Assembly (NCBI GenBank): GCA_964016885.1
Contig: OZ024750.1
Location: 46,066,001 to 46,130,000 of the forward strand
Origin: Eledone cirrhosa
Taxonomy: Eukaryota
Length of the DNA: 64,000 bases
Direction: 5' to 3'
In this document: piece by piece, positions 9,594 through 57,811 of the stretch
Layout: every line of letters starts with the position of its first letter
How positions within the stretch are numbered: position 1 is the stretch's first letter
Position numbers and translations under genes: made by a program
The notes under the pieces: model-generated
Databases searched by the model: none
What the model saw: the letters and a program-made list of their open reading frames with translations, nothing else
Told to the model about the DNA's origin: nothing

Positions 9594-9694
9594 AAAAGAT
9601 GAGTGTTGCCGTACATGTACGGCAACACTCATCTTTTTCCATTTCTCCAGGGTTATAAACCCCACTATCAGGCTAGAAATTTCTTTAGTCTAAA
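9594..9694. repeat. Perfect 44-bp palindrome (9594-9637) heading a short island that ends in (TA)n
   Basis: AAAAGATGAGTGTTGCCGTACA|TGTACGGCAACACTCATCTTTT. Confidence 0.85.
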
Positions 9695-10261
9695 ATATAT
9701 ATATATATATATATATATATATATATATATATATATATATATATATATATATGTATATATATATCTTCCTAAATATATATACCGTATATATATATTTAGG
9801 GAGATAAGTCAAATTAAATTTCGTTTGTGCGAATTAGGTGCGCAAACAATATATATGGAAGATTGCTATGCTCGTACTATACTTATTATTATTAAATACA
9901 TTTATTTCTGGCTTTTTCCTTCTACGCAGACCCATGCTACATTCCTATCTTCTTTTTCTTTCTGATGAAGGAATAACGTCCGAGAAGCTGCAACCCTTTC
10001 TACAAGCGAGGACGTCATTTCACTTTAAATTATTTCATAATTGTCTTATGTGTTTGTTTTCACTGTTCTTCAATGATAAACACACACACAGACACAAATA
10101 CACACACACACATACGGATACACATACACAGACACACGCACACACAAACATATATAAGTATATATATATATATCTGTTTGTGTATTTATTTATGTATGTG
10201 TATACATGTGTGTATATATATATGTATACATATATATATGACCCCTTAGCCTTTGTCAAGG

Positions 10262-10641
10262 CAGAATTCTAGGAGAAGGAAAACTCTGATATAACACCTG
10301 CAACCCTGATGGTATCCAATGATGTTGACTTGTTCTTCTTTTTGGTAAATATCATCTTGGTTAAGAGAGTGGGACTGGCTTTGTGCAGTGCCTTTGCTCA
10401 CTATAAAAGCTTCACGGCACAGGCATTGCTTTATATCTGGAGATCTCTCTGCACTTGTCGTCACATGGTACCATGGGCCCAGCACTATGTGTCAATAATT
10501 GTCACAAGTGTAGTGTTTGTACCAGAGTTTTCAAGTCGCTGTCTGGACTAAAAAGTCACACTCGTTCAGCGCTTCGGTAGGGGTTCCCCTACATGGATAT
10601 AAGGTAGTGGCCGTACTCGTAAACGAGTTGGCAGCCACCAT
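10262..10641 (+). mobile_element. Probable internally deleted RTE derivative (5'UTR-like part joined to last Zn finger and 3' end)
   Basis: 3' part encodes CSVCTRVFKSLSGLKSHTRS and ends TGGCCGTACTCGTAAACGAGTTGGCAGCCACCAT, homologous to the 3' end at 21250-21285; 5' part CTAGGAGAAGGAAAACTCTGAT resembles RTE 5'UTRs (from memory). Confidence 0.6.
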
Positions 10642-10848
10642 ACATATATATATTTATATATATATATATATATATATATATATATAGTATTAAGGATACT
10701 CTTTATGGTTATGTATGTAATAAAACCTTTAATGGTAATATATTATTTATACAAACCTTAAATAGTGAAAGATAGTCATTAATTACTATCCTATTACCAG
10801 TAAGATAAATAGCTCAATGTAATAACATCAGTTGTTTTACAGAGCAGT

Positions 10849-10990
10849 TATATAGAGATTACAATAATCAAAGTTCAGTTTAAGTCATTTATTTGCTTAC
10901 AATTGTTTCCTCCAAACCTCGGTTTGGAGGAAACAATTGTAAGCAAATAAATGACTTAAACTGAACTTTGATTATTGTAATCTCTATATA
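10849..10990. repeat. Fold-back palindrome, 70-bp arms, 2-nt loop; left side extends to ~10686
   Basis: ...TGTTTCCTCCAAACC tc GGTTTGGAGGAAACA... Confidence 0.93.
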
Positions 10991-11053
10991 TATATATCTA
11001 TATATGTATATACGATATTAACAAATGGAAACTATATTTATAAAACCATATTT

Positions 11054-11116
11054 ATTCCATTATACATATTTCAACGACACCAATTTAAATTAGGCTGTGC
11101 TTTCATCAGATAAAAT
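11054..11116 (-). ncRNA. Type I hammerhead ribozyme motif (family B)
   Basis: Minus strand: ATTTTAT CTGATGA aagcac...gtgtcgtt GAAA TATGTA TA ATGGAAT. Confidence 0.75.
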
Positions 11117-12949
11117 ATAATATAGATCAGTTTTATAAATAAATATTGACATACCCTTAAAGAATGCAACCATTGCTGTTGGAAGCTCCTGGATATATAT
11201 ATATGCATATATATATATATATATATATATATATATATATATATATATATATGCACACACATATGTATATATGTATACATATATATATATATCACTTTTG
11301 GTTGCCCGTGTCTCTCTCTCTCTTTCTCCTGTCTATGCGAGAGGCATCACGATTATACCAGCTCTGAGTCGTAGCTGACCACCAGGCTAAAGTCTCCCAT
11401 GTTGGTCACAACTTACTTTCCCTATTTTTCCACAGTTACTCTTTTGCATGTTTTTTTCACCTGTGTCTTCCCACGATGGGATCTGTACTCTTTTTTTTCT
11501 TCTATTCCTTTTCTATTTTTCCCCTTATTCCTCGCTCCTCATCTCCCCCCCCCCCTGTCCTTCTTCCTTTCCCTCTCTTTCCTTTTCTCTTTACTTTTTT
11601 TCTCTCTTTCTCTCTCCCTTTCCACCTGGCCTTTTGATTGATAAAAGTCCTCGGGCGCACCCGGACTACACCGATGTCCTGTAATTCAGCGCCGAAACAT
11701 CGGTTCGGCATACATTTACAGCTGACGATGGAAACTCTTTTCTTCCTTTCTTCCCCTGTTCCGCCCTAACCACCACCCTAAACCTTGTTTTTAGTAACCA
11801 CTGCTCCTTTCGTTGCATAACTTTATATATATATATATACATATATACATATGTGTATGTTAAACAACTTCTTGTGAGTTAGTTGTTTAAGAAAAACAAG
11901 AAATAAATAGTTAAAATACAATCGTGGTTGATTTCAGATTTAAAAGTAGAGATCAGGAGAACGTGAGATAAGGAGAAAGAAAACACACAAATGTATGTAT
12001 ATAAATATGGATGTATGGATGTGTGTATATACATGTATCTATGTATGAATGTATGTATGTATAGGTGCGTTGTTTACAATTTCTTATCAATTTCACTCAC
12101 ACTCAGCAAATGTATATATACATATATATATATATATATATATATATATATACATACATATATATATATATGTGTGTGTGTGTGTGTGTGTGTCCGTGTG
12201 TATGTGTGTATATACATATATATAATATATATAATATATATAAAATATAATATATATATATATTATATATATAATATATATATTCACAAGCACACATATT
12301 TTATATACATCTACAATTATGCCGAAAGCGTTATTCTTCAACTTGTGAATCCGAAAATCTAATAATATTCCAATTGCCTGCCTGGAGGTATTTTCCCTCG
12401 GAACTAAACATGGAATTCCTTGCGGTGTTTTTGTCCACCCTTACCACCTCTTTCCTCTCGCTTCAATTCGCTCTTTATATTTCGCTCTCTATTTAACTCA
12501 ATCTCTCCTCTTAATTTGGACATTACGCTGAAACGAAAAGTATAAATAAGCGGAAATGTTCGCAAAACATTAAAATATTTGACAATACACAAACACACGC
12601 ACACACACACATACACACACACAACCACACAGCCAGTCACACACACACACACACACAAATATATATATTTATATATATATATTTATATATATATATATAT
12701 ATATATATATATATATATATACATATATATATGTGTGTATGCGTATTTATATTTGGATGTGTATGTAGCTTTGCGCTAGTGTGTTGGGGCATGTGTGTGT
12801 GTATATATGTGTATATGTATATATGTGCATATGTATATATACATAAAAATGTGTCTCTGTGTGTTCGGGTGTATTGATGTGTAAATCCAATAGTGCATGA
12901 GTGTATATATGTGCATATAATATATATATATATATATATATATGTATAT

Positions 12950-55829: not shown

Positions 55830-56160
55830 CTGGAGGTTATGGAGGGTCATATTATATTGTTATAATATTGCCAGAAATAAAAATAGAACACCCTCACTGG
55901 TTGGTTTTCGCTTCTGTATCTTTTATATGTCCATAGTTAATTTATCTGACAATCAATGTTTCTCATTGATTGACTAACCAACGGTTAAAAATACATACAT
56001 AAATATATATACATATATATATATAAGCAAAAGGGATATTTAATTTGTTGATAATATATATATATATACATAGTCTATCAAATTTCTTTCATCACACACC
56101 TGTGACATCATCAGTGGTACTATTATGTTTACCCCCTTTGTAGTGTCTACGCCATTTTTT
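55830..56160 (-). mobile_element. Diverged solo PLE 3' region (family E) with HHR at 56077-56118
   Basis: ACCA CTGATGA T GTCACA ggtg TGTGAT GAAA...TGAT; homologous to 17599-17975. Confidence 0.8.
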
Positions 56161-56281
56161 TTAAAAGATGAATAAAGTACATTTGATGAATATAAAACCT
56201 ATGGTCGAAAGAATTAGGTCCTTGATATTCTTGAAACTAACAACATTTCATCAGATTTCTTCGTCCGCGAAGAAAGATAAC

Positions 56282-56438
56282 TGTTTCTACTTTAGGAACA
56301 AAGCCAGCAATTACCCGGTGCATTACTGGTACTTTATTTTATCGACCCCGTAAGGATGAAAGGCAAAGTCAACCTCGGCGGGATTTGAACTCAGATCGTA
56401 AAGGGACGTAACTATGCTGGAAAGCATGGTGTCTGACC
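56282..56438 (-). mobile_element. SINE, 5'-truncated, TSD AAAGATAAC
   Basis: SINE core; 9-bp flanking duplication. Confidence 0.85.
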
Positions 56439-56900
56439 TTAAAGATAACGTTGAATTCTTATAGAAAGTCCGGCATATGGCCGCATGGAAACACACCACA
56501 TCCAAATACCCTATCTTATTGAGATGATAAACAGGCGGGTAGACCTCAGAGATGCTCTGCTCAACGGTTGTATGTGAGAAGCTCTATGATTAAAAAAACC
56601 TTTGTATATTACATACAGAATTGTGATTGCAAGTCCGAGACATCTGACATTTAAGAGCACCAAACTGTAAGGGGCTGAGTTGAGACAGGCTCAATAATCG
56701 CATGACTACTGAAAACCATCCAGCAATAAAGTAACACTGGGTATAACATTTAAACCAACTCCTATATTATCTGACTCAATCCATCCAACAATCGTGGAGG
56801 AAGTTCTGGAATGTCTAACATCATTTACAACACACCTACCTAGGCTGAAGTTAGAGGGGTGTCGGTTGGCAGAACATTTCTTGGGAGAGAGCAATATTAC

Positions 56901-57021
56901 AGAAGAAGAAGAAGAAGAAGAAGAAGAAGAAGAAGAAGAAGAAGAAGAAGAAGAAGAAGAAGAAGAAGAAGAAGAAGAAGAAGAAGAAGAAGAAGAAGAA
57001 GAAGAAGAAGAAGAAGAAGAA
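56901..57021. repeat. (GAA)n microsatellite
   Basis: Direct reading. Confidence 0.95.
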
Positions 57022-57635
57022 TATATATACATATACATATATATATATGCGTCTATACAATTATGTATGTATATTTCATACCTCTCGCTCTGTTGACGAA
57101 GGCCAGGTATTAAGCGACGAAATCCTAAGATACAATACAACAAGCTATGTTTATTCAATTCTTTTCTTTCACCAAGTCCCTCTATACTGTTATCCCCAAG
57201 AAACCCCTGAAATACTCCTTGTTTATCGTCCCTGCACAAGAGATCTTCATAACTACATGAGAGATACGTAGATCGAATAATATAAACGTATAAATTAGAA
57301 TGATAAAACCATCATCACTAAATGTAGAATCAGGGGTGAAATGCGGATGCTCTAAAAGTATGGACATATCAATCCTATCCATTAAAAGGTACGCCATATC
57401 CAGGGTTATTTTCAAACCAATCAATATATGAAAACATTACAGACATCGTATGGCATCTGAGTTTGTTCATTGTATTGAAATAACTATCAAAATATTTTCA
57501 TACTAAAATCAGTGAATACTTTGTTTGATGCTTTGGAAAGTTTATCTGCCGGCCTAAAATTGTGAATATTCTCTCCGCAAAATTCTATGTGCTGAATGTA
57601 TATATATATATAAATATATATATATATATATATAT

Positions 57636-57811
57636 GTGGACCATAACGCACCAAAGTACTCAATACTTAGGGTAGTAGAGTGGGTAATAGGAACGAGTAG
57701 GAACCCGACGGCTGAGCTCAAGCCGTTTCGACGGCTAATTCTGGACTCAGAGTCCAGAATTAGCCGTCGAAACGGCTTGAGCTCAGCCGTCGGGGACCTA
57801 CTCGTTCCTAT
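57636..57811. mobile_element. Family H fold-back element, 61-bp arms (57687-57747, 57751-57811)
   Basis: ATAGGAACGAGTAGG...CTGGACT cag AGTCCAG...CCTACTCGTTCCTAT. Confidence 0.85.

Follow-up and report, generated by a model that had tools for sequence, protein, structure and literature searches.

The window analysed here is a stretch of 64,000 nucleotides (64 kb) from Eledone cirrhosa (assembly GCA_964016885.1, contig OZ024750.1, positions 46,066,001 to 46,130,000), and it contains a recurrent set of lopsided palindromes, most of which are very probably insertions of Penelope-like elements (PLEs) and their short derivatives. The DNA is 68% A+T; about half consists of microsatellite and tandem repeat and the remainder is retroelement debris. 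Twelve palindromes had been listed in a preliminary description made from the sequence, and all twelve were recovered by gapped alignment, with arms of 22-243 bp, 87-100% identity and loops of 0-48 nt. Given as matches over aligned columns, they lie at 9594 (22/22, loop 0), 10849 (70/70, loop 2), about 13050 (arms from 13030; 51/58, loop 2), 34857 (from 34859; 94/95, loop 5), 35157 (from 35155; 231/243, loop 10), 39604 (149/149, loop 10), 42661 (from 42654; 152/162, loop 16), 44918 (165/174, loop 21, refined to 13), about 46430 (from 46432; 47/54, loop 12), 46574 (from 46569; 174/177, loop 1), 52105 (from 52096; 187/203, loop 48, the inner part being degraded arm) and 57687 (60/62, loop 1). 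Their arms make up about 2.9 kb, or 4.6%, of the window. An inverted-repeat search without masking returned 56,405 pairs, dominated by (TA)n. The BLAST local list under the first mask missed 34857, 35157, 42661, 44918 and 52105, all recovered by gapped alignment, and the Tandem Repeats Finder mask concealed 44918, 15898 and 25391; later scans corrected this, with 15898 remaining under the scan threshold. Five further lopsided cases (15898, 25391, 40527/42434, 43345 and 52008) bring the head-to-head total to 17, in about ten families; the family letters used below represent a grouping within the window alone. Dinucleotide shuffles of the unmasked DNA gave inverted repeats in 0/20 and 0/50 trials. 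No inverted repeat starts in the long interspersed element (LINE) remnants (6,815 bp) or in ten listed short interspersed element (SINE) segments (2,625 bp), about 9.4 kb together. The single match linked to a SINE pairs an unlisted opposite-strand copy at 45357 with a SINE 2 kb away.

For nine of the twelve palindromes it is very likely that we are dealing with insertions of (TA)n-targeting PLEs and of short, non-autonomous, hammerhead-bearing derivatives. In family F a remnant of a PLE reverse transcriptase-endonuclease (RT-EN) sits between a 44-bp inverted arm (40527-40570) and its own pseudo-long terminal repeat (pseudo-LTR). This plus-strand copy (40527-42496) is 5'-truncated and frameshifted; it holds an RT core and, C-terminally, an endonuclease of the GIY-YIG type (40574-41902), a hammerhead core at 42195 within the pseudo-LTR and a 59-nt tail (42438-42496), and is bordered by (TA)n at both ends. 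The protein has 58% identity to a protein of Octopus vulgaris, the best named match, and its profile match to RVT_1 (E = 0.005) is under the cut-off. Thirty homologues were found, two of them with PF01541, which we take to be the GIY-YIG domain. The endonuclease motif VYxI..YIGET..R..E..N can be recognised by eye, and a Pfam search with the endonuclease fragment of the window gave no endonuclease match. An RT of the PLE type followed by a GIY-YIG endonuclease in one open reading frame (ORF) is found in family F only; the partial-tandem pseudo-LTRs and/or the inverted 5'-truncated copy that also mark PLEs are present. Neptune/Nematis-type PLEs likewise have a C-terminal endonuclease, a CX2-5CxxC linker, a CCHH motif and a bias towards microsatellites. 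P0001 has the linker CX4CxxC, the window copy has the same linker with its first Cys replaced, and a CCHH-like C..C..H..H is present; on motifs these elements may belong to a clade of this type. The Hydra clade also targets (TA)n yet is without CCHH, and is further marked by DKT and CxCX5C; P0001 has DKS and CX4CxxC and the window endonuclease is CCHH-like, so that assignment was rejected.

The hammerhead core pattern has 24 matches in the window against 1.02 expected. Twelve of the 14 distinct cores lie within these families, all oriented with the tail 3'. The complete pattern is present in three palindromes (39604, 42661 and 46574) and in families F and K, and the 3' half alone in six (10849 and 44918 by search, 35157 and the three of family B by eye); three palindromes have none, and the family C tandem has a variant core only. 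The cores appear to have the short palindromic helix III described for PLE hammerheads (PMC4209133). Because the architecture is common to the non-coding families and PLEs, the former would be mobilised in trans by a PLE RT-EN, family F being the only one physically linked to such an ORF. Several results weigh against this identity. Rfam gave a hammerhead match in none of three small regions submitted, and with the whole window no hammerhead was among the matches listed (150 of 385), which were only of the chance microRNA type. The attribution to PLEs made in the preliminary description thus stands for the nine palindromes with hammerhead motifs or family links, and through the RT-EN of family F; 9594, 34857 and 52105 have no sequence link to any PLE.

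In the sense of the element, an insertion opens with (TA)n and the inverted short arm; the loop, the long arm and the tail follow, and a second (TA)n closes it. It had been proposed that both arms abut (TA)n and that the long one runs to a family-specific end, and with a few exceptions they do. Eleven of the 12 short arms adjoin (TA)n, by way of (GA)9 at 34857, one G at 13050 and TATG units at 39604, the exception being 9594, which adjoins a LINE remnant. The long arm also ends at (TA)n in 11 of 12, with 42661 first fused to a short piece of another family. Its end is family-specific in families A, C, D and E, and not in B, where the end of 57687 falls about 25 nt before those of 13050 and 46430. 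The long arm overruns the short one by 33-162 nt across the listed palindromes, and in all 15 measured cases besides 9594 a tail of 33-167 nt is present at one end only. The lopsidedness is the PLE 'tail', which lies between two fixed 3' end points per family, 33-167 nt apart. The proximal of these points is where the short arm starts: 17 tail-less ends in families A, B, C, D, E and F fall within about 4 nt of their family site, for which the rough joint probability, set against 3-18 available TAT clusters, is 4e-11. Not included in this count are 43211 and 55830, two diverged family F pieces whose ends lie about 11 nt earlier; the pair at 37077, which has about 70% identity to family E and ends about 6 nt later; 18928, a family C relative with its end in the same column; and family K, with one such end. 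An alternating-TA match of template and target at the short site covers 3-6 nt in 9 of 14 cases, and 1 nt at 13050, 25391 and 9594.

Within one insertion the arms are 94-100% identical, whereas insertions of the same family are 76-84% identical to each other, and in families C, D and E the fold points vary among copies. The hairpin is therefore formed anew at each insertion. Microhomology at the junction amounts to 0-7 nt. A fixed, inherited palindrome is ruled out for families C, D and E by their differing fold points. It is unlikely in family B, where the fold is the same in 3/3 and yet copy-specific variants are common to both arms (57687 and 46430). Hammerhead cleavage was rejected as the determinant of the fold: in families A, B, E and G the fold lies upstream of the point where the hammerhead would cleave. 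The loop at 39753-39762 is indeed directly repeated and belongs, to be precise, to a tandem duplication of 12 nt at 39738-39762. The duplication does not by itself demonstrate slippage during integration, because both arms contain the first 3 nt of its second unit and a hairpin microhomology of 5 nt forms the junction.

Some further features of the ends were observed. Family C has TATTTG(G)CTC both after the short site and after the long end (43779-43795 and 43868-43885), and the short site of family F likewise has TATTTG (42430-42445); this motif may be a signal for starting or cutting that the two families have in common. Fragments of family C that consist of the 3' tail only (34800-34823, 35814-35841 and 40171-40240) have one common long end, and the last of them stops about 18 nt short of the family C short site. 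Ends of different families are fused directly, without (TA)n, at 43074-43076 (A to C) and 55829-55830 (K to F), which suggests template jumps or insertion of the elements into each other's ends.

We regard two-sided, or twin, priming as somewhat more probable than snap-back of a single copy as the origin of the fold-backs, and give it a probability of about 0.55. The GIY-YIG endonuclease would nick both (TA)n strands. One 3'-OH would start reverse transcription at the distal site and produce the long arm with its tail, and the other would start at the proximal site, aided by the TA match of 3-6 nt, and produce the short arm. The two complementary DNAs (cDNAs), made from one RNA or with a second RNA and often reaching about the same RNA 5' end, would then be joined head-to-head through 0-7 nt of microhomology. 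In L1 twin priming, inverted 5' segments and junction microhomology also occur, but priming takes place at no fixed site and there is no overlap between the arms. If the first cDNA stopped before the proximal site, this same geometry without overlap might be expected here too (40026 and 38190/38410). Priming on one strand only could leave a solo copy, and a tail-to-tail pair could result if the duplex between the nicks stayed paired. The fold-back itself would be an integration by-product with no function.

Several observations bear on this scheme, in which the proximal site behaves as a second start for the RT. The short site works alone in the solo tail-less copies (11013, 17603, 18928 and 43076). 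In two cases the short arm is far from the fold, at 257 nt for an arm of 33 nt and at 1,820 nt for one of 44 nt. At 40026 and 38190/38410 there is a short arm without a template in cis, and the tails fail to reach the short site by about 12 and 17 nt, respectively. The tail-to-tail pairs also speak for the scheme. In 13050 the two arms differ at 6/48 sites, and all three differences diagnostic of subfamilies are in one phase (simulated p about 3e-4), the long arm having 57687-type alleles and the short arm 46430-type alleles; the tail of 13050 has a 14-nt stretch in common with 57687. The 13-nt loop of 44918 fits its family better in the sense of the short arm (p 0.005 vs 0.11). Joint ending of the cDNAs fits family B, in which 4/4 short arms have the same 5' end, and roughly family A.

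Snap-back, which was the mechanism originally proposed, remains a live rival, although we judge it the less probable of the two. Here a single cDNA begun at the distal site would fold on a micro-hairpin and copy itself, to be terminated where its own pseudo-LTR is TA-rich, by an endonuclease cut or by falling off; this site would then anneal to the upstream (TA)n, and later central deletions would reshape the loops. It directly predicts the small loops (up to 23 nt) found in 13 of the 17 head-to-head cases, it is in keeping with young copies whose arms are identical, and at 39604 and 15898 the loops are in the long-arm sense and closed by hairpin stems of 5 and 7 nt. Self-priming has already been proposed for the palindromic junctions of PLEs (PMC3846280), the tail has been attributed to endonuclease-mediated resolution (PMC8557442), and cDNA snap-back has been seen for R2 (PMC11371274). 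These loops and stems also weigh against twin priming, which needs the added assumption that both cDNAs end together and, in families C, D and E, would require two RTs on one broken RNA. The loop-sense test was not significant for 42661 (p 0.15 vs 0.26), and loop size tends to increase with arm divergence over the twelve listed palindromes with unrefined loops (rho 0.56, p 0.06, n=12; rho -0.02 over all 17), as would be expected of later central deletion. Palindrome centres are deletion-prone, and such deletion can mimic short-sense loops and missing arms. The two-subfamily signal of 13050 is a single case which gene conversion could also produce, and the PLE studied in vitro is a Poseidon element from a lizard, of another clade than the elements here (Frangieh 2024, PMC11167929). 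Snap-back does not capture the fixed short site, and by itself it can hardly produce the solo tail-less copies, 40026, 38190/38410 and 13050. It would have to land within 33-44 nt of the short site after starting 257 and 1,820 nt away. To account for 40026, 38190/38410 and the solo tail-less copies, one of which measures 1.2 kb, it requires that one side was deleted later; 13050 would call for gene conversion, and the tail-to-tail pairs would have to arise separately. The proximal site, moreover, corresponds to an RT start in vitro (PMC11167929). It may be that twin priming and snap-back both operate.

The other explanations are far less probable. Long inverted arms bordered by TA would be expected of Foldback or miniature inverted-repeat transposable element (MITE)-type DNA transposons inserted at TA, and 34857, 52105 and 9594, for which neither a hammerhead nor a relative was found, may still be of this kind; in general such an origin is improbable in view of the one-sided tails, the tandem units, the variable fold points, the variants common to both arms of a copy, the hammerheads and the RT-EN link. 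Symmetric terminal inverted repeats with a fixed internal structure are absent from families C, D, E and F, which include single-arm copies. It is similarly doubtful that breaks at (TA)n hairpins or cruciforms led the host to duplicate the adjoining DNA in inverted form. (TA)n is self-complementary and the tail-to-tail pairs are centred on it, but no case occurs in the LINE and SINE DNA (9.4 kb), although some of this DNA adjoins (TA)n as well, the arm skips the tail that adjoins (TA)n, and the ends are family-fixed. Chimeras of amplification, reads or assembly are the least credible source, even though in three of the twelve palindromes (9594, 10849 and 39604) the arms match at 100%. The arms have diverged in the other nine, with 32 transitions and 31 transversions over the nine pairs examined, and the ends recur at family sites at separate loci and in one class of repeat only, which supports the earlier view that these are genomic structures and not artefacts.

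An adjacent inverted, 5'-truncated copy with a one-sided tail is the standard form of a PLE insertion (Craig 2021, PMC8557442), in agreement with the initial remark that such insertions often carry inverted 5' segments, and palindromes at an inverted PLE junction have been interpreted as self-priming (Arkhipova 2013, PMC3846280). With both the architecture and self-priming in print, the structure is a known one to which the window adds new members; the formation of tandem and inverted PLE structures is named as an open problem (Craig 2021, PMC8557442). Insertions of endonuclease-bearing PLEs resemble those of the window in their inverted copies, partial tandems, one-sided tails, junction palindromes and microsatellite targets (PMC8557442, PMC3846280). 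Their tails are described as 30-40 bp in the same sources, compared with 33-167 nt here, and, unlike them, the copies in the window are mostly non-coding and so short that the arms form a near-perfect hairpin. One PLE protein has been found in vitro to cut and extend both target strands, and to start reverse transcription at two internal sites that bound the tail, a dimer being predicted (Frangieh 2024, PMC11167929). We infer that two such primings facing each other would give the anatomy seen in the window directly. This PAc Poseidon system also has AT-rich targets, with a preference for ATT, and hammerhead cleavage is dispensable in it (PMC11167929); in the window the hammerheads are whole inside the arms, with no fold at the cleavage site. 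It belongs to another clade and host, and the in vitro result is not tied to inverted insertions, the term 'inverted' appearing a single time, for a blocking dT (PMC11167929). R2 snap-back similarly gives inverted 5' segments with junction microhomology, without, as far as it is described, the fixed second end found here (PMC11371274). The literature searched, with most subscription papers outside it, yielded no stated link between the inverted insertions of PLEs and twin priming.

We tentatively consider that PLE integration may be two-ended, a dimeric RT-EN priming both strands, each from a different one of the two tail-bounding sites, and possibly using two RNAs as at 13050. If true, such a reaction would cover the head-to-head fold-backs, the one-sided tail, the non-overlapping inversions, the solo copies and the tail-to-tail pairs. 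With 17 head-to-head cases in 64 kb, counting such insertions over the whole genome could tell twin priming from snap-back with no laboratory experiment. The arms are computed to fold as near-perfect duplexes, with a z of -39.9 for 46574. In Octopus bimaculoides the share of loci that form long double-stranded RNA (dsRNA) is exceptionally high and hyper-editing is high, and the species was omitted from the repeat analysis of the same paper (PMC5625713). If they are transcribed, the fold-backs are a candidate source of much of the near-perfect dsRNA behind the extreme adenosine-to-inosine hyper-editing in octopus. They also pose a risk in annotation, as they resemble MITEs or microRNA hairpins.

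The individual families differ in size and preservation. Family A has two plus-strand fold-backs, at 46569-47001 (arms 46569-46745 and 46747-46923, tail 78 nt), where each arm has a complete type I hammerhead motif (46816 on the plus and 46676 on the minus strand), and at 42654-43074 (arms 42654-42815 and 42832-42997, tail 77 nt) with a hammerhead in both arms; their short and long ends coincide. The family B fold-backs are all on the minus strand, at 12951-13147 (arms 13030-13087 and 13090-13147, tail 77 nt), 46369-46551 (arms 46432-46485 and 46498-46551, tail 63 nt) and 57636-57811 (arms 57687-57748 and 57750-57811, tail shortened to 51 nt). The tail of a further minus-strand B copy (39950-40075) ends about 12 nt before the short site and is joined to a full inverted short arm without a long-arm template. 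Family E comprises the minus-strand fold-back at 39516-39911 (arms 39604-39752 and 39763-39911, 149/149, tail 88 nt, hammerhead in both arms), its fold having the 12-nt duplication and 5-nt microhomology already mentioned, and on the same strand a mini fold-back at 15812-15952 (14-nt non-TA arm, 7-nt microhomology, 23-nt loop, tail 86 nt) and a solo tail-less copy at 11013-11192 between two (TA)n runs, with a hammerhead core at 11109. There is also a two-piece copy without assigned strand (38190-38483), in which a tail-less inverted piece (38190-38280) is followed by (TA)n and a tail-only piece (38411-38483) starting about 17 nt past the short site. The D fold-backs are at 35155-35791 on the plus strand (arms 35155-35398 and 35409-35660, tail 131 nt, hammerhead 3' half only) and at 44778-45287 on the minus strand (first arm from 44918, second arm up to 45287, loop of 13 nt at 45097-45109, 140-nt tail); they have the same short site and fold points about 75 nt apart. 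Besides the copy with the RT-EN remnant, family F has a solo tail-less pseudo-LTR at 17603-17975 on the minus strand, whose first 44 nt are the same as the inverted arm at 40527. In the minus-strand fold-back of family G (10687-10990; arms 10849-10918 and 10921-10990, 70/70, tail 162 nt) the fold is 11 nt upstream of the hammerhead 3' half. A second family G fragment, at 18681-18755, matches the tail of the first (10728-10802) at 75% and ends at (TA)n at 18756.

Families C and K contain tandem units. In family C a 254-bp inverted tail-less arm accompanies a partial tandem of a 371-bp unit at 43341-44246 (plus strand), and a small minus-strand fold-back at 51893-52075 has 31-bp arms, the short one internally deleted yet ending at the family short site. 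A C-like partial direct tandem at 18928-20138 (minus strand; 210-bp repeat, 99.5%) has a tail-less end at (TA)n and is without an inverted arm. Family K (24509-25423, minus strand) has a 422-bp tandem unit with hammerhead cores at 24811 and 25233 and a 33-bp inverted arm 257 nt from the nearest template; a related copy lies at 55167-55829. It is similar to the non-LTR retrozymes, which have non-coding tandem units, type I hammerheads and kinship to the pseudo-LTRs of PLEs (bioRxiv 10.64898/2026.07.22.740005), and only family K has at least two tandem units each with a complete type I hammerhead. Unlike retrozymes, the copies in the window are mostly truncated monomers with inverted arms. Families H and I, both on the plus strand, are assigned to PLEs by architecture only, no hammerhead or relative having been found for them within the window. 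Family H (34846-35090; arms 34859-34955 and 34961-35055, 33-nt tail) has (GA)9 at the start of the short arm against (GA)2 in the long arm. This may be RT stutter, which is kept as a weak lead because compound microsatellites are common in the window. Family I (52105-52591) has a 46-nt tail; in its centre (52286-52361) the inverted repeat is far more diverged than the outer arms, representing either an older template hairpin or central instability. The plus-strand palindrome at 9594-9693, a perfect one of 44 bp with a 56-nt run to (TA)n and its left end at the LINE remnant, falls outside the pattern.

A second architecture, in which inverted arms lie tail-to-tail around a central (TA)n, was observed at 37077-37286, 18190-18315, 43076-43383 and 37287-37348, and three of these four pairs have hammerhead-bearing or family C ends. 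The first belongs to a plus-strand relative of family E (36990-37286) with a hammerhead at 37053 and 78-bp arms, identical at 78/78, around (TA)27. The second is formed by a minimal hammerhead at 18099, recognised by eye, with 28-bp arms (18088-18315, plus strand), the third by a tail-less 3' piece of family C (43076-43114, plus strand) that faces 43349 across (TA)n, and the last is a 22-bp pair.

Among the other repeats, a LINE ORF fragment at 21499-23467 (minus strand), 5'-truncated at (TA)n, is stop-free over 653 aa, with an RT match (E 4.8e-31) and C-terminal C2H2 zinc fingers; it looks young. A pair of LINE 3' remnants at 49485-49955 and 50288-50704 (minus strand) carry zf-RVT and have 74% identity to each other. 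A non-LTR 3' remnant at 50978-51856 (plus strand) has CCHC-like and PD..D motifs between (AAT)n and (TAA)n runs; it had no Pfam match and presumably resembles R4/Dong-type elements. The SINE-like family, which we assume to be similar to octopus SINEs, is represented at 724-923, 1153-1458, 5440-6183, 16470, 18345, 47445, 48800, 53300, 54400 and 56275, all in one orientation, and at 45357-45425 in the opposite one, a bias that perhaps reflects an intronic location. At 15997-16114 and 16668-16783 a 118-bp direct repeat (87%) encloses about 550 bp with a SINE piece inside, is flanked by (TA)n and could be either a small LTR-like or a partial-tandem element. The window opens, at 1-663, with a 93-bp tandem array of 7.1 copies (98% matches) that extends beyond its start.

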